Shown here piece after piece: positions 3,209-44,056 of a stretch of 64,000 bases of DNA. The stretch comes from Gaiellaceae bacterium (GTDB taxonomy: Bacteria; Actinomycetota; Thermoleophilia; Gaiellales; Gaiellaceae). The translations under genes were made by a program, and so were the position numbers. The number at the start of each line of letters is the position of its first letter. Position 1 is the stretch's first letter. The notes beneath the pieces were generated by a model. That model had not been told where the DNA came from, made no database searches, and saw only the letters and a program-made list of their open reading frames with translations. The stretch is taken from NCBI GenBank assembly GCA_035776735.1, contig DASSSO010000033.1, positions 582 to 64,581 of the forward strand, given 5' to 3'.

Positions 3209-6200
3209 CTATACCCGACTCTCCGGGGCCTGAGTCAAGGTCATCGGCAGCTCGAAGACGAAGCACCCACCCTGCCCGCTGTCGGAGTCGACCCAGACGC
3301 GGCCGCCCATCGCGCTCGCGAGGCCGCGGGCGATGAAGAGCCCGAGGCCGGTGCCGCCGGGAGCCTGGCGGGTCGCCTCAGCGCGGTAGAACTTCCGGAA
3401 GATCCGCTCCTGCTCGCTCTGGGGAACGCCGGCGCCCTCGTCGACGACGCGAACCTGCACGGCGTCGTGCGTCCTGCGGGCGGCGACCGTGACCGTCCCG
3501 CCCTGCGGGGAGAACTTGACGGCGTTGTCGACGAGGTTCGCGAGGATCTGCCGCACCTTGTCCCGGTCGGCCGACGCGTCGAGCGGCTCGTCGGGGACCT
3601 CGACGACGAAGCGCCGCGCGTTCGCGAGCTCGCGCTCGGCGCTCTCGACGACGTCGGAGACCACCTCGCGGAGGTCGGTCGGCGCGAACTGGACCTGAAG
3701 GTCGCCGCTCTCGAGGCGCGCGACGCTCAGCAGCGCGTCCACGATCCCGGTCAGGCGCTGCGCCTCCGTGGCGATGTAGCCGAGGAACGTGCGGCGCGCC
3801 TCGTCCTCGAACGCCACGTCCTCCCGCAGGAGCGTCTCGGCGAAGCCGTAGATCGACGTCAGCGGCGCGCGCAGCTCATGCGAGACCGTGGAGACGAAGC
3901 CGGACTTCAGCTGCTCCACGAGGTGATCGGAGGACACGTCCCTGAACGCGTAGATGCGGCCGGCGACCGCCCCGGCGGGATCCCGCATCACGGCCTCGCT
4001 GACCGAGAGCCAGACCTCCTCCCCCCCGCGATGGATCTGGATCAGCCCGCGCCCCTCCGCCGAGGTCTCGTCGGGCTCGAGGCTCCGCTGGAGGACGTCC
4101 GCCGGCGTCCGTCCCATCGCCTCCGCCGCCGGCACGTCCGTGATCTCCTCCGCCGCCGCGTTCCACAGCACGACGCAGCCCTCCCGGTCGACCGCGACGA
4201 TCCCGTCGGCGACGTTGCCGAGAATCGCCACGCTCCGTTCCCGTTCCAGCACGACGCGCTGGTAGAGCTCGGCGTTGGACAGGAACGCGGACACGTTGGC
4301 CGCGAGCGCGGCGAGCGCCTCGACCTCCTCGTCGCGCCAGGAGCGCGCGCCGCGCGCGTACACGGCGAGGACGCCGTGCACGGCTCCCTCCGGGCCGACG
4401 AGCGGGGCGCCGAGATAGGCGGCGTGGCCCGCCTCCAGCAGCGCGTCGGAGCCGCTGAGGATCCCGCCGGCTCGCGCGTCGCCGACCGCCACCGGGCCGC
4501 GGGACTGGACGACCTCCCCCGCGAGCTCCCCAACCGCCGAGACACGGCTGCCGATCGCCGCGTCAGCGCCTTCCCCGTGGGCCGCGCTGACCACGAGCTC
4601 GTCGCCTTCGAGCATGCTCACCGCGGCCGCGTCGGCGCCGACGAGCCCGGGCGCCTGCTCGACGATCTCCTCGAGGATCGCGTCGGGGTCGAGCTCGCTC
4701 GCGAGCAGCGTCCCCGTCCGGGCGAGCTGCTGCGCGATCGCGCGGTTCCGCCGCTCGGCCTCGAAGAGCTCCGCGCGCTCGAGGGCTCCCCGTGCGGCAC
4801 CGGCGAGATGGTGGGCCAGCTCGATCTCGTCGTCGGAGAAGGCCTGTTCCTCGGAGAAGAAGACGAGGCCGATGCCGGTCTGCTCGCGTCTCGGCGCCTC
4901 GACGGGGACCGCGACGAGCGAGCGGAAGCCCATCCCGTCCGCGAGCCCGCGCCAGGCGTCGCCGAAGCGATCGTCCTCGGCGACGTGCGGCGAGGCGAGC
5001 ACGCGCTTGCGGAGGGCCGCGTCATGCAGGGGCTCCGCTCCGCCGACGCCTTTCGCGAGGAACTCGGAGACCGCGGGAGGGAGCTCGTGCGCGCCCGAGA
5101 GCCGCAGCCCGCCGTCGCCGGGCATGAGCACGGCCGCGAAGCTCCCGCCGAGCGCCTCGCTCGCCGCCTGGGCGACGGCGTCGAGGGTCTCGTCCAGGGA
5201 GAGGGGCTGGGCGAGGACGGACGCGATCCGGAAGAACCCTCGCTGGATCCGTACCTGCCGCGCGCTCTGCTCGATGCTCGCCACGTTGCGGAGCGCGACC
5301 GAGCCGAGGTTCGCGAACGCCTCCAACACCTCGACGTCCTCCGCGCTGAAGCGCCGGTCGGGGTCCTTCGTCCCGACGCCGATGACGCCGCGGACCTCGC
5401 CCCACCAGGTCATCGGGGCGACCATCGCGGCGGTGACGCCCTCGTACGCCTCGTGCGGCCTCTCGACCTCGTCGCCGTAGTCGAGTGACACGACCGCCTG
5501 CCGGCGCCGCATCGCCTCGCCCGCGAGCCCGGTCTCGGAGGGGAACTCGAGCTCGATCAGGTTGGCCGGAAGCCCGTACACGGCTGCGCAGCGGAGGACA
5601 CCCCGTCGCGGGTCGAGGAGGTAGCAGTCCGCGGCGTCGGCCTCCAGGAGCTTCGTCACCTCGACCACGAGCCGCTGGAGGACCGCCTCCACCTGGAGCT
5701 CGCTCGTCATCACCTGCGCCGCCTGGACGAGCGCGGCCTGCCGGTCGAGGCGGCGCCGGTTCTCGTCCAGGAGCTGCGCCGTGTGCAGCGCGAGCCCCAC
5801 CTCGCGGGCGACGGCCTCGGCGAGCGACACGTCCGAGGCCGTCCACTCGGTCGTCTCCGCCCGGTGGAGCCCGAAGACGCCGATCACGTCGCCGAAGACC
5901 TCGATCGGCGTCGCGAGCGCCGCCTTCGTCCCGATCTGGAGCAGCGTCTCGACCTGCCCGAGGCTCGGATCCCGCAGCTCGGGATCCTGCGCGACGTCGC
6001 CGGAAACCACCGTCCGGCGCCTTCGAGCGGCGAGGTTCACGACCGGGAGGTTCGGCGCCGCCGTCCCGATCGAATCCACGCCGGGAGCGTCCCACTCGGC
6101 GCGGATCGGCATCGTCCGGCCCGGCTGGCCGAGTCGGATGAAGCAGCGGGCGACGCCGGTGGCCCTGCCCACCTCCTCGACGGCGATGCGGAGCACGGTC

Positions 6201-6940
6201 TCGAGGTCGTGCTCGGAGCGAACGCGCTGGCCGATCTCCGCGACCACGCGCTCGCGGCCGAGCGCCTCCTCGAGCCGCGCCGCGGAACGGGTCTTCTCGA
6301 GCGCGAGCGCCGTCTCGCCCGCGAGCGTCTCCAGCCGCGTCATCTCCTCGGGCGGGAACGCCCGTCGCCGGCTCGTGCTCGCGGCGACGAGCACTGCGAG
6401 TACGCGCGCGCCGGACACGATCGGGACGAACGCGGCGCTCTTGGCGCCGACGCGGTCGGCGAGGCGGCGGTTGACGCGGGGGGAGGACTCGACGTCGAAG
6501 ATCGTCAGCGACGCGGCCTCGAACGCGGCGCTCGCGATCGCCGACGGTTCGTTCTCGAGGTCGATGCGCACCGACGGCCACCAGCCGACGTCCTTGCCGT
6601 CGCTGCTGCGCGCCACGAGGCCGGTCGCCTCCTTCGTGTCGTCGTTGATCTGCGCGACGGCGGTGAACTCGACCCCGAGGAGCGAGGTGACCTCGTCCAG
6701 AAGCGTCTGCGCGACGGCCTCCGCGTCCGTCGCCCGGGCGAGGCCGGCCGACAGCGAGGGCGGCGTCTCGGCCGGCGGCTCCTCCTCCGCCTCCGCGGAA
6801 GTCTCGGGTGTCCCGCGGTTCCGGCGGCGAAGGACGGCAAGGAGCACCGCGGCCGCGACGAGGAGCGCCGCGGCGAGCGCGAGCAGGAGGTAGCCGACGG
6901 CAACCGAGAGAAACGGCTGCGCGGCGATCGTCAGGCACAT
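3209..6940 (-). CDS. membrane-anchored sensor histidine kinase with about five GAF domains, one PAS domain, HisKA and HATPase_c
   Basis: Start ATG 6940 (MCLTIAAQPFLSVAVGYLLLALAAALLVAAAVLLAV is a TM anchor). H-box SHELRAPLTSI, N-box LVDNAVKFSP, G-boxes DEGAGV and GTGLGL. The track ORF continues upstream to 8152, but only as antisense of ispH. Confidence 0.85.
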   Translation of the reverse strand: MCLTIAAQPFLSVAVGYLLLALAAALLVAAAVLLAVLRRRNRGTPETSAEAEEEPPAETPPSLSAGLARATDAEAVAQTLLDEVTSLLGVEFTAVAQINDDTKEATGLVARSSDGKDVGWWPSVRIDLENEPSAIASAAFEAASLTIFDVESSPRVNRRLADRVGAKSAAFVPIVSGARVLAVLVAASTSRRRAFPPEEMTRLETLAGETALALEKTRSAARLEEALGRERVVAEIGQRVRSEHDLETVLRIAVEEVGRATGVARCFIRLGQPGRTMPIRAEWDAPGVDSIGTAAPNLPVVNLAARRRRTVVSGDVAQDPELRDPSLGQVETLLQIGTKAALATPIEVFGDVIGVFGLHRAETTEWTASDVSLAEAVAREVGLALHTAQLLDENRRRLDRQAALVQAAQVMTSELQVEAVLQRLVVEVTKLLEADAADCYLLDPRRGVLRCAAVYGLPANLIELEFPSETGLAGEAMRRRQAVVSLDYGDEVERPHEAYEGVTAAMVAPMTWWGEVRGVIGVGTKDPDRRFSAEDVEVLEAFANLGSVALRNVASIEQSARQVRIQRGFFRIASVLAQPLSLDETLDAVAQAASEALGGSFAAVLMPGDGGLRLSGAHELPPAVSEFLAKGVGGAEPLHDAALRKRVLASPHVAEDDRFGDAWRGLADGMGFRSLVAVPVEAPRREQTGIGLVFFSEEQAFSDDEIELAHHLAGAARGALERAELFEAERRNRAIAQQLARTGTLLASELDPDAILEEIVEQAPGLVGADAAAVSMLEGDELVVSAAHGEGADAAIGSRVSAVGELAGEVVQSRGPVAVGDARAGGILSGSDALLEAGHAAYLGAPLVGPEGAVHGVLAVYARGARSWRDEEVEALAALAANVSAFLSNAELYQRVVLERERSVAILGNVADGIVAVDREGCVVLWNAAAEEITDVPAAEAMGRTPADVLQRSLEPDETSAEGRGLIQIHRGGEEVWLSVSEAVMRDPAGAVAGRIYAFRDVSSDHLVEQLKSGFVSTVSHELRAPLTSIYGFAETLLREDVAFEDEARRTFLGYIATEAQRLTGIVDALLSVARLESGDLQVQFAPTDLREVVSDVVESAERELANARRFVVEVPDEPLDASADRDKVRQILANLVDNAVKFSPQGGTVTVAARRTHDAVQVRVVDEGAGVPQSEQERIFRKFYRAEATRQAPGGTGLGLFIARGLASAMGGRVWVDSDSGQGGCFVFELPMTLTQAPESRV

Positions 6941-7127
6941 GGGCGCCACTGAGCCAGACGGATGATACGGAGCAGCCGTCCGAGAACGAATACGAGGGAG
7001 GCCCGCCGCTCGGGGGGGTCGGTGCGGCGGGCACTCCCCAGTGCTAACCGCGGATCGTGGCCAGGTACGCGCACCGCGGTTCGCGTCGCCCAGTGACGCC
7101 AAGCTACCCCGGCGACCCGTGAATTCC

Positions 7128-7146
7128 AATAGGCCGATCGGCCCAT
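7128..7146. repeat. second copy of the AATAGGCCGATCGGCC motif (AATAGGCCGATCGGCCCAT)
   Basis: 16 of 16 nt are identical to 679-694. In reverse orientation the similarity extends to CAATAGGCCGATCGGCC plus a GAAT-like flank. It lies 32 nt upstream of the ispH ATG, in the divergent kinase/ispH spacer. Confidence 0.75.
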
Positions 7147-7177
7147 CTTTGAAAGCCAGAAACGGTGGCCGGATACC

Positions 7178-8143
7178 ATGGCTCCGATGGTGGAGCGAGT
7201 GCTGCTGGCCTCGCCGCGCGGCTACTGCGCGGGCGTCGAACGGGCTGTCGAGACGGTCGAGCGGCTGCTCGACCTCCACGGGCCCCCGATTTACGTGCGC
7301 AAGCAGATCGTCCACAACCTGCACGTCGTGCGGGACCTCGAGGAGCGGGGCGCGATCTTCGTCGAGAGCGAGACGGAGGTGCCGCCGGGGGCGCGGATCG
7401 TCCTCTCGGCGCACGGCGTCGCCCCGTCCGTCTACGCCAACGCGGGGGAGCGCGGGCTGAAGACGACGGACGCGACCTGCCCCCTGGTGACGAAGGTGCA
7501 CGTCGAGGCCCGGCGCTATGCCGCGGAGGGCTACACGGTCGTGTTGATCGGCCACGCGGGTCACGAGGAGGTGATCGGGACGATGGGCGAGGCGCCCGAG
7601 GCGACCGTCCTCGTCCAGTCGGTCGCGGACGCCGAGGCGCTCCGGCTCGCCGATCCGAACCGGGTCGCCTACATCACGCAGACGACGCTCTCCGTCGACG
7701 AGACGACGGAGATCATCGCCGTGCTCCGGCGGCGCTTCCCCAACATCCGCGCGCCCAAGCGGGACGACATCTGTTACGCCACGTCCAACCGTCAGTGGGC
7801 CGTGAAGGACATGCTCGCCGAGGTCGACCTGCTGCTCGTCATCGGCTCCAGGAACTCGTCCAACTCGAACCGGCTCGTCGAGGTCGCCCGCGCCGGCGGG
7901 GTCGAGTCGCACCTGATCGACGACGAACGCGGCATCGAGCTCCGCTGGCTCGACGGGGTTCGCACCGTCGGGATCACGTCGGGTGCCTCCGCGCCGGAGA
8001 AGCTGGTGGAGCGAGTCTGCGACTGGTTCCGGGCCATGGGCGTGCGGCGCATCGAGCCGTTCCAGTCGGTGCACGAGGACGTCGTGTTCCGCCTCCCCGT
8101 CGAGCTCCGTCGCGAGCTCGCGCTCGCCGAAGCGCAGCGCTAG
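7178..8143 (+). CDS. ispH: 4-hydroxy-3-methylbut-2-enyl diphosphate reductase
   Basis: Full-length IspH/LytB pattern: LASPRGYCAGVERAV, DATCPLVTKVH, HEEV, ICYATSNRQ, GSRNSSNSNRL and ITSGASAPE. Confidence 0.95.
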   Translation: MAPMVERVLLASPRGYCAGVERAVETVERLLDLHGPPIYVRKQIVHNLHVVRDLEERGAIFVESETEVPPGARIVLSAHGVAPSVYANAGERGLKTTDATCPLVTKVHVEARRYAAEGYTVVLIGHAGHEEVIGTMGEAPEATVLVQSVADAEALRLADPNRVAYITQTTLSVDETTEIIAVLRRRFPNIRAPKRDDICYATSNRQWAVKDMLAEVDLLLVIGSRNSSNSNRLVEVARAGGVESHLIDDERGIELRWLDGVRTVGITSGASAPEKLVERVCDWFRAMGVRRIEPFQSVHEDVVFRLPVELRRELALAEAQR

Positions 8144-8146
8144 CGG

Positions 8147-8176
8147 CCGCACGAACCCCGACCTTGTGTTGCATCA
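8147..8176 (-). repeat. left arm of a 30-nt inverted repeat bracketing the 89-aa ORF
   Basis: ccgcacgaaccccgaccttgtgttgcatca. 25 of 30 positions are the reverse complement of 8484-8513, including a 13-nt perfect AT-rich core ttgtgttgcatca. Confidence 0.85.
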
Positions 8177-8443
8177 GAAGAACCGCTGGATGGGGCACAG
8201 GCCGGCGAAGAGATCGCTGACGACCTGGGCCGCCAGCTCGCGGCGCTCCCCGCGCTCGAGCTCGAGCCGGCGTCGCTCGGCGATCAGGTAGCGGCGGACG
8301 AGCCAGTACGTCGGCCTGCCGATGCCGAGCTCCTCCTCGAGCGGGATCAGGCGGCGAAGAGCGTCCGCGTAGCCGATCTCGAAGCGGGCGAGCCCGGCCA
8401 GCGCGGCCTCGTAGTCCGGATGCAAGGCAGGCCAGCGCGGCAC
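8174..8443 (-). CDS. hypothetical 89-aa protein (possible HTH-like segment LGIGRPTYWLVRRYL)
   Basis: GTG start with an in-frame TGA 27 nt upstream. Third-codon positions are almost all G/C, as in neighbouring real genes. I recognise no family. Confidence 0.45.
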   Translation of the reverse strand: MPRWPALHPDYEAALAGLARFEIGYADALRRLIPLEEELGIGRPTYWLVRRYLIAERRRLELERGERRELAAQVVSDLFAGLCPIQRFF

Positions 8444-8483
8444 GCTTCGAAGGTGCCCGAGGAGAGCTCACGGAAGAAGCGAG

Positions 8484-8513
8484 TGATGCAACACAAAGTG
8501 GAACTTCGTGCGG
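8484..8513 (-). repeat. right arm of the 30-nt inverted repeat bracketing the 89-aa ORF
   Basis: tgatgcaacacaaagtggaacttcgtgcgg, the reverse complement partner of 8147-8176. Confidence 0.85.
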
Positions 8514-8521
8514 CTCCGAGC

Positions 8522-8689
8522 TCAGCCGGAGTCAGGACGCGGCTTGCGGCGGTCCTTGCCCGAGCGCCGGTCCTTGCCCGAGCGGCGCTCGCCTTCCTCG
8601 CGCCGCCGCGACTCCTTGCGCCGATCCTCGCCGCTCCGTCGGTCCTTTCCGGAGCGGCGGTCGCCTTCGTAGCGGCCCATGCCGCTCAT
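8522..8689 (-). CDS. unannotated 55-aa Arg/Asp/Gly-rich repeat protein (MSGMGRYEGDRRSGKDRRSGEDRRKESRRREEGERRSGKDRRSGKDRRKPRPDSG)
   Basis: Below the track's size cutoff. The first ATG lies 4 nt after the ileS TAG (TAGGAGAATG). A second ATG at 8680 sits 9 nt after GGAGA. Third-codon GC is high, and there are three DRRSGKD-type repeats from an 18-nt tandem unit. Confidence 0.35.
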   Translation of the reverse strand: MSGMGRYEGDRRSGKDRRSGEDRRKESRRREEGERRSGKDRRSGKDRRKPRPDSG

Positions 8690-8693
8690 TCTC

Positions 8694-11789
<3,096 letters not shown>

Positions 11790-11852
11790 CCCAGCCGGGC
11801 GGCGCGTTAGCCTGATCGGAACATTTCGTTGACCCGAAAGGACATTCAGTAG

Positions 11853-12188
11853 ATGGCAGACGCACAGGTTGTGACCGAGGAGACCTTCGACCAGGAGGTC
11901 CTCACCTCCGACACCCCGGTCCTCGTCGACTTCTGGGCCGAGTGGTGCCAGCCGTGCCACATGGTGGCGCCGGTGCTCGACAAGATCGCCGAGGAGCGGC
12001 AGGGCCAGCTGAAGCTCGTGAAGATCAACATCGACGAGCAGCCGGCGATCGCGCAGCGCTATGGGATCGCGTCGATCCCGACGATGGTGCTCTTCAAGGA
12101 CGGCGAGCCGGCCGCCGCCGCGCTCGGCGCCCAGCCCAAGGGCGCCCTGGAGCGCTCACTCGGCCTCTCCGAGAACGGAACCGGGTAG
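11853..12188 (+). CDS. trxA: thioredoxin (active site WCQPC rather than WCGPC)
   Basis: VLVDFWAEWCQPCHMVAP, and KINIDEQPAIAQRYGIASIPTMVLFKDGE. 111 aa. Confidence 0.9.
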   Translation: MADAQVVTEETFDQEVLTSDTPVLVDFWAEWCQPCHMVAPVLDKIAEERQGQLKLVKINIDEQPAIAQRYGIASIPTMVLFKDGEPAAAALGAQPKGALERSLGLSENGTG

Positions 12189-12985
12189 CCGGGTACCTCC
12201 TCATCAATCCGCGCTCGGGGGAGGACTCGCCGAGCGCGGACGAGCTTCGGGCCGCAGCTGCCGAGCGCGGCGTCGAGACGCACGTGCTCGGCGAGGGCGA
12301 CGACCTCGCCGAGCTCGCCCGCGGCGCGGACGCGGACACCCTCGGCATGGCCGGGGGCGACGGCTCGCTCGCCCCGGTCGCCGAGGTGGCGATCGAGCGC
12401 GGCCTGCCGTTCGTCTGCGTCCCGTTCGGGACGCGGAACCACTTCGCGCGCGACCTCGGCCTCGACCGTGACGACCCGATCGCCGCGCTCAGCGCCTTCG
12501 AGGGGAAGGAGCGGCGGATCGACGTCGGCCGCGTCCGCGGCGACCTGTTCCTCAACAACGTCAGCCTGGGCGCGTACGCGGCCCTGGTTCACCGCCGCGA
12601 GCACCACCGCCGCCGCGGCAACGCCTTCGCGCGTCTCCGCGCGCTCCTGCTGACCGTGAGAAACCGCGAGCCGCTGGGCCTGAGCGTGGACGGCGAGGCG
12701 GTCGAGGCGGACGTCGCGCTCGTCTCGAACAACGACTACACGCTGGAGCTCTTCTCGCTCGGCGAGCGCGACCGGCTCGACGAGGGGAAGCTGCACCTGT
12801 ATCTCGCGCGCGGTTGGCGCTTCTCGGAGTGGGAGGAGCGCGCGTGCACGTCCCTCACGATCGACACAGCACGCCACCGCATCGATGCGGCCGTCGACGG
12901 CGAGCCGGCCGAGTTCGAGACGCCGCTCGAGTTCACGAGCGAGCCGCGTGCGCTACGCGTGCTCGTCCCGGCTTCGCCAGGCTGA
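12185..12985 (+). CDS. diacylglycerol kinase catalytic-domain (YegS/LCB5-like) lipid kinase; start codon unresolved
   Basis: LLINPRSG N-terminal motif, GMAGGDGS, and CVPFGTRNHFARDLG. There is no ATG/GTG/TTG in frame near the conserved N-terminus. The annotated start is the GTA codon overlapping the trxA TAG. Confidence 0.7.
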   Translation, partial: VAGYLLINPRSGEDSPSADELRAAAAERGVETHVLGEGDDLAELARGADADTLGMAGGDGSLAPVAEVAIERGLPFVCVPFGTRNHFARDLGLDRDDPIAALSAFEGKERRIDVGRVRGDLFLNNVSLGAYAALVHRREHHRRRGNAFARLRALLLTVRNREPLGLSVDGEAVEADVALVSNNDYTLELFSLGERDRLDEGKLHLYLARGWRFSEWEERACTSLTIDTARHRIDAAVDGEPAEFETPLEFTSEPRALRVLVPASPG

Positions 12986-13471
12986 GATCACGTCGGGGAT
13001 GTGCGGGAACGCGATCTCGTCCCACGGGATCTCGTCGGGCGCGAGGAAGCAGAGCTCCTCGACGTCGTCGTCCGGCGTGGGCACTCCGTCAGCGATCCGC
13101 GCGCTCCAGTAGAGGTTGAGCGTCGAGACCTCGCGCGAGTGGACGCGATACGAGTCCATGAAGACGCCGACGAACTCGGTGCCGCGGAGCCCGATCCCGG
13201 CCTCCTCGCGCAGCTCCCGGTGGAGACAGTCCAGCGGATGCTCACCCTCCTCGACGAAGCCGCCCGGGAGGTCGATCTTCCCGGCCGCCGGATCCTTCGC
13301 GCGCCTGCTGAACATGATGCGCCCCTCGTCGTCCACCACCAGGGCCGACGCGGTCGCCTTGGGGTTCGCGTAGAAGACGAAGCCGCATTCGGGGCATTCG
13401 ACGCGGCCCTGCTCGTGGCGCAGGGCCGACGTGCAGGCCGGGCAGTGTTTCCAGGCGTCGAGCTCGCTCAC
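12953..13471 (-). CDS. NUDIX hydrolase with N-terminal zinc ribbon
   Basis: CPAC...CPECG zinc ribbon. Nudix box GGFVEEGEHPLDCLHRELREEAG. GTG start at 13471. It overlaps the convergent DAGK-family gene by 33 nt. Confidence 0.8.
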   Translation of the reverse strand: MSELDAWKHCPACTSALRHEQGRVECPECGFVFYANPKATASALVVDDEGRIMFSRRAKDPAAGKIDLPGGFVEEGEHPLDCLHRELREEAGIGLRGTEFVGVFMDSYRVHSREVSTLNLYWSARIADGVPTPDDDVEELCFLAPDEIPWDEIAFPHIPDVISAWRSRDEHA

Positions 13472-43018: not shown

Positions 43019-44056
43019 GTGCTCGAGGTGAGAACGCTGACGGACGGCGGCCAGGATGCGCTCGACGTCGCCCGGCAGATCGCGGACTTCGTCGAGGGCG
43101 CTCGGTCGACGCTCGACTTCGCCCACTACGACTTCCACATCGCCGGTGAGACCAAGGAGGTCGTCGGCGGCGCGATCAAGGCTGCGGCTGCACGCGGAGT
43201 CGCAGTCCGGTTCCTTTACAACTTGGATCACCGGAACCCGATCCCGGTTCCGCCGCCTCCCGAGCCCGACGGGAAGCTGATCGCGTCGTTCGCCGTGCCG
43301 GTCAGGGCGATCGCGGGCGTTCCGGACCTGATGCACCACAAGTATGTCGTTCGGGACGGCGAGACGGTCTGGACCGGGTCGACGAACTGGACCGACGACT
43401 CGTGGCTGCGTCAGGAGAACGTGATCGTGATCGCGGAGTCGCGCGAGCTGGCAGCCCGGTTCACGGAGAACTTCGACGAGCTGTGGGACACAGGGGCGGT
43501 CGAGCGGAGCGGCTTCGTGACGTCGCGGCCGGTCGCCGTGGGAACGCTGGAGGTGCGGCCGTGGTTCACGCCCGGCAACGGCGAGGATCTCTCGCACCGG
43601 ATCGGCAAGGCGATCGGGCGCGCACGCCGCCGTGTCCGCATTGCCTCCCCCGTGATCACCGCGGCGCCCATCCTGTCGACCCTGGCGGAGAAGATCTCGG
43701 AAGGGAAGCTGGACGTCGCCGGCTGCGTCGACCAGCCGCAGGTGCGCGGCGTCATCTACCAGTGGCGAGAGAACGGCAACATCGCCTGGAAGCTGCCGCT
43801 CCTCGAGCGGGTGATGCAGGCGCCGTTCTCCGGGAAGCGGTCGACCCCGTGGGGGCCCGGCACGCTCCACGACTTCATGCACGCGAAGGTCACGGTCGCC
43901 GACGACACAGTCTTCGCGGGGAGCTACAACCTCTCCCGCTCGGGCGAGCTCAACGCAGAGAATGTGCTCGAGTTCAGGGATCCGGACCTGGCCGACCGCC
44001 TCGCCGGGTACATCGACGACGTCCGGGCGCTCTACCCGCCCTTCTCGCCCGAGTAG
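43019..44056 (+). CDS. phospholipase D-like protein with two HKD motifs
   Basis: HHKYVVRDGETVWTGSTNW and HAKVTVADDTVFAGSYNLSRSG. The GTG start is tentative (43019 or 43028). Confidence 0.8.
   Translation: MLEVRTLTDGGQDALDVARQIADFVEGARSTLDFAHYDFHIAGETKEVVGGAIKAAAARGVAVRFLYNLDHRNPIPVPPPPEPDGKLIASFAVPVRAIAGVPDLMHHKYVVRDGETVWTGSTNWTDDSWLRQENVIVIAESRELAARFTENFDELWDTGAVERSGFVTSRPVAVGTLEVRPWFTPGNGEDLSHRIGKAIGRARRRVRIASPVITAAPILSTLAEKISEGKLDVAGCVDQPQVRGVIYQWRENGNIAWKLPLLERVMQAPFSGKRSTPWGPGTLHDFMHAKVTVADDTVFAGSYNLSRSGELNAENVLEFRDPDLADRLAGYIDDVRALYPPFSPE

Follow-up and report, generated by a model that had tools for sequence, protein, structure and literature searches.

What is a 30-nt inverted repeat around one small gene for? 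In the window (the whole 64-kb stretch of Gaiellaceae DNA that was analyzed), a short ORF lies between ileS (8694–11960, minus strand) on one side and the convergent ispH (7178–8143, plus strand; Pfam LYTB) on the other, and two complementary arms enclose it. The elements of the locus are:

8174–8443, minus strand: ORF of 89 aa, a small helical protein with a helix-turn-helix-like pattern and a long C-terminal helix
8484–8513, minus strand: upstream (5′) arm, CCGCACGAAGTTCCACTTTGTGTTGCATCA in the sense of the ORF, its 3′ end 41 nt before the GTG start codon
8485–8499, minus strand: invariant core of the 5′ arm, ACTTTGTGTTGCATC, at −56 to −42 relative to the start codon
8147–8176, minus strand: downstream (3′) arm, TGATGCAACACAAGGTCGGGGTTCGTGCGG in the sense of the ORF, opening with the TGA of the ORF
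8164–8176, minus strand: invariant core of the 3′ arm, TGATGCAACACAA, with a mean pairwise identity of 0.993

The initial annotation of this DNA had described an inverted repeat around one small ORF, complementary at 25 of 30 positions, and these sequence facts were all correct on recheck. Complementarity between the two arms is perfect over a 9-nt GC block and over a 13-nt AT-rich block, and an additional G-C pair flanks them at 8146/8514; a repeat search lengthened the arm pair to 43 nt at 77% complementarity. The left arm overlaps the stop codon of the ORF, and the far end of the 3′ arm is 3 nt from the ispH stop codon. When a 16-mer from one arm was searched with up to 3 mismatches, its only matches in the 64 kb were the two arms (0.03 matches expected by chance). 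The 30-nt inverted repeat is real and is not a product of chance.

A 1647-aa ORF (3209–8152, minus strand) runs antisense through ispH into the left arm and is an artefact that reflects high GC content and a scarcity of stop codons. The gene actually present there encodes a GAF-rich sensor histidine kinase of ~1260 aa, starts near position 7000 and is present in all homologous loci.

Mean pairwise identity of the 89-aa ORF was 0.76, 0.83 and 0.54 at the first, second and third codon positions, a clear coding signature that marks the gene as real. Its 33 close homologues (60–98% identity) all come from Gaiellaceae metagenome-assembled genomes or soil metagenomes. A profile search yielded 66 cluster representatives, about 275 proteins altogether, and most family members among those listed are ~70–150 aa long and have the motif YAEAWRxLIPVAxRLGxPRPSYxxVRRFL in common. 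The 89-aa protein gave no significant match in Pfam, NCBIfam, PHROGs or in PDB sequence and profile searches, and the gene family, with its ~275 relatives and none of them in Pfam, is previously undescribed. Paralogues of the gene were not found in the window or the flanks. Homologues were likewise absent from plasmids and viral contigs, and a plasmid or phage origin was rejected on this ground.

The locus was compared with 24 distinct, independent related Gaiellaceae loci. The order ileS, ORF and convergent ispH, followed by the GAF-domain sensor kinase gene, was found in 24/24. Of the repeat, only the inner core was kept across these loci, namely ACTTTGTGTTGCATC upstream of the gene and ATGCAACACAA on the stop codon. 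Exact matches to both cores (5′ TTTGTGTTGCAT; 3′ ATGCAACACAA, overlapping the stop codon) occurred in 25 of the 27 sequences scanned, and the core-to-core spacing was exactly 323 nt in 23 of these 25. L008 departs from this spacing (322 nt, by a 1-nt deletion), and L016 and L025 carry single-base variants of the 5′ core. The distance from the 5′ arm to the start codon was constant at 41 nt in all related loci. Mean pairwise identity reached 0.975 in the 5′ core and 0.993 in the 3′ core, when compared with 0.54 at third codon positions and 0.41–0.51 in the flanks; the two cores are the longest invariant blocks in the locus and have diverged much less than the coding sequence.

Conservation is seen at the inner ends of the repeats, not at the outer ends. 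The outer 9-bp GC block was perfect only in the window and L002, the outer part of the 3′ arm changed at the neutral rate (identity 0.51), and the conserved block of the 5′ arm outreaches its complement, since GAAGTTCCAC has no partner in the 3′ arm. On these alignments, the conserved object is a 13–15-nt sequence motif in two inverted copies and not a 30-bp helix with strand-specific wobbles. The earlier proposal that the repeat is under selection and linked to the enclosed ORF is upheld by cores that are invariant in the 24 related loci at near-constant spacing. The comparison also carries a caution: what looked in a single genome like an impressive 30-bp stem with G:U asymmetry came down to a 13–15-nt invariant motif when relatives were examined.

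Outside the two arms, neither the 64-kb window nor ~120 kb of flanking DNA from the homologous loci contained the motif. One additional near-match in the window, TGATGCACCACAA (43329–43341, plus strand), is one mismatch from the core and was judged to be due to chance because it lies inside a phospholipase-D-like ORF (HKD motif, ...DLMHHKYVVRDG...).

The same set of loci bears on the idea that the segment is an invertible DNA cassette, flipped by a recombinase that switches the ORF between the ileS and the ispH transcription units. Inverted repeats do flank a small cassette between two convergent transcription units. However, the flipped orientation was seen in 0/24 independent assemblies, all 24 loci having the orientation of the window, and no recombinase was found among the neighboring genes (ileS, ispH, the GAF-domain sensor kinase gene, a thioredoxin gene, a lipid-kinase-like gene and a NUDIX gene). 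A catalytic domain was not found in the enclosed protein, and neither was an HUH domain. We consider an invertible cassette, once suggested for this locus, to be effectively excluded and give it almost no credence.

A second possibility is that the arms act as RNA. They would pair in ileS read-through transcripts and close a ~300-nt loop around the ORF, and the resulting long-range helix would be processed by RNase III or bound sequence-specifically, possibly by the encoded arginine-rich protein, with the outcome that the small mRNA is separated, stabilized or silenced. In the window, the pairing is as the initial annotation had it. In the minus-strand RNA of the arms, three of the five mismatches are U:G and 28 of 30 positions pair. 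When region 8130–8530 was folded as minus-strand RNA, the arms were placed in one long helix of the minimum free energy structure (−212.9 kcal/mol, z = −3.9), in agreement with the folding check that had been proposed. For a predicted transcript spanning both arms, that is, given ileS read-through, the core helix had a pairing probability of at least 0.94 in 17 of 20 loci.

Signs of pairing were also sought among the relatives (alignment A3). The 12 core pairs never vary, hence there is no core covariation, and invariant pairs are uninformative on pairing. At the edge of the core, pair 49-383 was UA in 10, UG in 8 and CG in 1 case, and pairs 34-399 and 35-398 alternated among CG, GC and AU. 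The outer block was paired in 62% of cells, slightly above shuffled alignments (56%; 1/500 reached the observed value) and slid controls (32–52%). Its covariation score was 0.225 vs. 0.159, with 4/500 shuffles reaching the observed value, a level that unconstrained related sequences attain in 5–25% of trials. Cells with G:U outnumbered those with A:C by 60 to 27 overall, an excess dominated by two columns, and by 20 to 13 in the outer block.

Other measurements point away from a helix. Duplex energy was −36.6 kcal/mol for cognate arms and −36.3 kcal/mol for non-cognate arms from distant loci, with no difference between them, and sense and antisense duplexes had equal energies on average; folding likewise gave no advantage to the sense over the antisense RNA. 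The conserved stem measures 13–16 bp, and only this length is left in clades L003, L006/L017, L015/L020 and L026, where the outer 9-bp pairing is absent; such a stem is short for RNase III. An Rfam search of 7000–13000 gave no match at E ≤ 1.

These data suggest that (i) the outer 9-bp helix and the G:U strand asymmetry are lineage-specific, the asymmetry being present in the window but not general across relatives; (ii) of the ~30-bp RNA duplex previously proposed, the helix is found in the fold and its core is predicted, but only 13–16 bp are conserved; (iii) compensatory changes are confined to a weak signal in the outer block and to the edge pair, with none in the 12 core pairs; and (iv) relatives do not conserve the double-stranded RNA of ~20 bp or longer that would be expected of an RNase III stem.

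Transcription termination was considered as well. An intrinsic terminator with the T-rich arm as its U-tract gave a weak match in the window but was rejected. No consistent hairpin was found before the arm on either strand in 21 loci, where z-scores were around 0, and the stretch from ileS to the arm likewise lacked a terminator-like hairpin.

The interval between ileS and the 5′ arm contains a 55-aa arginine-rich ORF (MSGMGRYEGDRRSGKDRRSGEDRRKESRRREEGERRSGKDRRSGKDRRKPRPDSG; 8522–8689, minus strand), with an 18-nt tandem repeat at 8546–8584 inside it. This ORF ends 22–25 nt short of the 5′ arm, has no match in Pfam, NCBIfam or PHROGs, and is kept in six of the closest loci (the window, L002, L004, L005, L009 and L025) and absent from the other clades. 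Within the invariant 5′ arm, GTG and TTG codons (8468–8493, minus strand, and homologous loci) are in frame with the 89-aa ORF. In some clades no stop interrupts the frame from the 5′ arm, and this accounts for P0019 and P0030 being predicted as 106-aa genes; other clades have a conserved cGTGA with an in-frame stop at −27, so that only an 8-codon mini-ORF is left. An N-terminal extension or upstream ORF starting from these codons was rejected, since it is not conserved as coding sequence and meets the TGA at −27 in some clades.

The position of the 5′ arm relative to the promoter of the small gene depends on one further element:

8450–8455, minus strand: putative −10 element, CACCTT, at −12 to −7 from the start codon

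In 21 loci, A at −11 and T at −7 were invariant and the hexamers at −12 to −7 were all [C/G]ANNNT, with the caveat that position −12 is C or G and not T. The pattern NANNNT was found at the same place in distant homologues, with GACGCT before the ATG of the L029 gene and CATCCT before the likely GTG of the L027 gene. In Mycobacterium tuberculosis, a TANNNT box is located 7–12 bp upstream of 73% of primary transcription starts, a conserved −35 consensus is absent and leaderless mRNAs are abundant (PMC3898074). By analogy, the geometry upstream of the ORF fits actinobacterial leaderless promoters, and we infer that the gene has its own promoter and a leaderless mRNA that begins at the start codon. 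Because such a promoter would be downstream of the 5′ arm, the arm (−56 to −42) would be promoter-proximal DNA outside the ORF's own mRNA. The 5′ arm is thus probably upstream of the ORF's own transcription start, which counts against an RNA helix in that mRNA.

A sigma-70 or ECF-type promoter in the arm or antisense to it was rejected, the consensus scan being negative and manual inspection revealing no conserved −10 partner. The start of ispH is probably the ATG at 7187 (MVERVLLASPRG...) rather than 7178 (region 7174–7189, plus strand), and a TACCAT box at 7174–7179 would make ispH another leaderless gene in this genome.

Related repeats were found beside distant homologues in other genomic contexts. 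In L027/L028 (43% identity; between a hypothetical gene and COX3), the pair CTTGTGTTTCAT / ATGAAACACAAG is located upstream of the gene, and the halves of this inverted pair, written as CTTGTGTTTCATCTCAC / GTGGCATGAAACACAAG, are 36 nt apart. In L029/L030 (38% identity; after a ketoacyl synthase gene), there are three perfect palindromes of the form CTT(T)GTGGCTC-N-GAGCCAC(A)AAG, which have the CTTTGTG end in common with the arm of the window. Two of them bracket the gene, one 59–81 nt upstream and one directly after the stop codon. The third fills the 57-nt gap between the divergent ATP-dependent ligase and ketoacyl synthase genes (L029 2547–2609), where it is placed between the −10-like boxes TAGGTT (−12 to −7 of the ligase ATG) and TAGGCT (ketoacyl synthase). 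This is a classical operator position, and it is senseless for a terminator or a processing hairpin. The separation of half-sites thus differs by subfamily (1, 36 and 307 nt). A conserved inverted-repeat or palindromic motif stands beside the gene's own putative promoter in the orthologues (−56 to −42, 21 loci), and related repeats stand beside the homologues of L027 and L029. The distant members P0042, P0048 and P0100 end in ...MQHK, the translation of ATGCAACACAA, which suggests, at the level of protein sequence, that the 3′ motif is widespread.

In L027, a degenerate, C-rich tandem array (3589–3694; period 24 nt, 4.6 copies; TCCCGCCCTCCGCCGAGCCTCAGC) lies in the intergenic stretch of 535 nt that precedes the homologue with its inverted repeat. 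In L029, a Prim-Pol-type gene is present within 2 kb of the divergent ligase/ketoacyl synthase promoter region, and the small protein of L029 may regulate the neighboring ligase, ketoacyl synthase and Prim-Pol-type genes.

The distant loci cut both ways for a long-range RNA helix. A stem whose loop length can vary would accommodate arm separations of 1, 36 and 307 nt, and the L029 palindromes have kept self-complementarity in their outer parts although these are not the same in each copy. In contrast, the palindrome between divergent gene starts cannot be understood as a 3′ or processing hairpin. The argument for RNA pairing and RNase III is weakened by the invariant core, the weak outer helix, the asymmetry that is not general, the putative leaderless promoter and the operator-like palindrome of L029, and we regard a functional RNA helix as an unlikely, if serious, alternative.

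The reading we favor, tentatively and with somewhat less than even confidence, is that the arms are paired DNA operator sites (or half-sites), recognized sequence-specifically by the encoded 89-aa protein. As an account of the arms, binding by the product of the enclosed gene is more likely than a flip-switch or an RNase III stem. Sequence-specific recognition is indicated by the fixation of every core nucleotide, and by a motif that accompanies the gene family in unrelated contexts. The lack of covariation in the 12 core pairs counts in the same direction, since selection on pairing only would permit covariation. That the motif is found nowhere else in 64 kb or in the ~120 kb of flanks fits a local regulator.

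The protein has features that such a role would call for. The segment LEExLG-IGRP-TYWxVRRYL, with its canonical-looking pattern LG-x-G-R-P-T-Y-W, has the look of a canonical helix-turn-helix. An AlphaFold2 model (pLDDT 85) is all-helical, with three short helices (9–20, 25–31 and 33–39) and one long helix (46–81), and is compatible with DNA binding. Foldseek searches of the PDB and BFVD with this model yielded nothing significant (all E-values >0.4). Among the weak neighbors with recognizable descriptions, most are helix-turn-helix DNA-binding domains of transposases, resolvases and Hin (E of at least 0.47), the best, non-significant ones being the repeat-binding domains of the transposases SETMAR, Mos1, Mu and Tc3.

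We propose that the 89-aa protein would contact DNA through the helix-turn-helix-like motif (LEExLGIGRPTYWxVRRYL) and possibly dimerize through its long helix. One operator site (−56 to −42) would abut the gene's own, apparently leaderless promoter (−10 box at −12 to −7), and its inverted partner would cover the stop codon, where the gene borders the convergent ispH. By occupying both sites, the protein would autoregulate its gene. It may bridge the sites as a ~320-bp loop or, alternatively, shield the gene from ileS read-through and from convergent ispH transcription. DNA binding, the promoter with its leaderless start, and the looping or roadblock action are all inferred. If this reading is true, it defines ~275 uncharacterized small proteins of Gaiellales and related uncultured Actinomycetota together with their recognition motif. 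It would also provide a clean natural case in which the two binding sites of a regulator bracket its own gene at a fixed distance, useful for studies of looping and insulation in very GC-rich organisms with leaderless mRNAs.

Several observations speak against operators. All family and structure searches with the 89-aa protein were without a significant match, half-sites ~322 bp apart are unusual for a simple dimer, and a separation that varies among 1, 36 and 307 nt would sit more easily with a stem whose loop can change in length. Also on that side are the outer helix, in which pairing and covariation are slightly in excess, the edge pair with its UA, UG and CG states and the predicted long-range helix.

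A third alternative is that the locus descends from a minimal mobile element, either as a relic or after domestication. The arms would then be the terminal inverted repeats of an ancient insertion, and its sole surviving gene, fixed between ileS and ispH, would encode a small repeat-binding regulator of the kind of IS1 InsA or IS3 OrfA. The ~30-nt terminal-type repeats around a single small helix-turn-helix-like gene, the family members in unrelated contexts, each with related repeats, and the L029 palindromes, which resemble empty repeat pairs, are all in keeping with such an origin, as are the structural neighbors themselves. However, there is no transposase or catalytic domain, and no target-site duplication, as the flanks CTAGCGG and CTCCGAG are not direct repeats. 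The gene is single-copy in the window and in all homologous flanks and is without plasmid or viral-contig homologues, and its identical position and orientation in 24 loci point to vertical descent. The inner rather than the outer repeat ends are conserved, and their invariance implies a present function and not decay. We therefore hold a mobile-element relic to be very unlikely.

A variant that joins protein and structure is that gene and arms form a self-contained cassette, in which an orphan helix-turn-helix-like protein would recognize a stem or loop around its own gene. The enclosing structure would be a DNA loop or a long-range RNA helix around the whole gene, and the half-site separation would be free to evolve from 1 nt (a palindrome) to 36 nt and to 307 nt (the whole gene). 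The locus may then represent a minimal module that brackets a gene and acts in autoregulation or insulation, or else a domesticated mini-element, and it would have no described counterpart. We consider this variant quite unlikely.

Paired DNA operator sites for the 89-aa protein, the preferred reading, can be set beside known systems. As in the Hin and Gin invertible segments, short inverted repeats flank a gene for a helix-turn-helix protein, but the present locus lacks a recombinase catalytic domain and an enhancer, and its orientation does not vary among 24 loci. The REP/RAYT systems also combine a single-copy gene with flanking inverted palindromic repeats that change together with the protein clade. 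In contrast to them, the locus described here does not encode an HUH/Y1 enzyme, and no dispersal of the motif was seen in the 64 kb or the homologous flanks.

RNase III stalks that bracket whole genes are known from the precursor stems of 16S and 23S rRNA and from the sites in phage T7 early mRNA; these stalks covary and are at least about 20 bp long. The present locus resembles them in having complementary sequences 5′ and 3′ of a complete gene with predicted long-distance pairing. It differs in that the conserved stem is 13–16 bp and invariant in sequence, and in that the 5′ arm is probably upstream of the gene's own transcription start.

InsA of IS1 and OrfA of the IS3 family, both small proteins with a helix-turn-helix, bind the terminal inverted repeats of the element that encodes them. 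Here too, inverted repeats of ~30 bp closely surround the gene of a ~90-aa protein that combines a helix-turn-helix-like motif with a helical tail, the left repeat adjoins the putative promoter, and by analogy the protein would bind both repeats and autoregulate. Unlike these elements, the locus has no transposase, target-site duplication or extra copies, is vertically inherited at a fixed position, and its protein has neither sequence nor significant structural similarity to them.

The lac operators O1 and O2 are 401 bp apart, and gal OE-OI and ara O2-I1 are other cases of auxiliary operators and DNA looping. Our locus resembles them in that the same recognition sequence occurs twice, at a distance of a few hundred bp, once at the promoter and once within or past the regulated gene, and in that a single oligomeric helix-turn-helix protein presumably binds both copies. 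In contrast to lac, gal and ara, the protein family is uncharacterized and its binding and looping are putative, each site is a half-palindrome with the two halves mutually inverted, and the entire gene of the proposed regulator itself lies between the sites, whose spacing of 323 nt is invariant.
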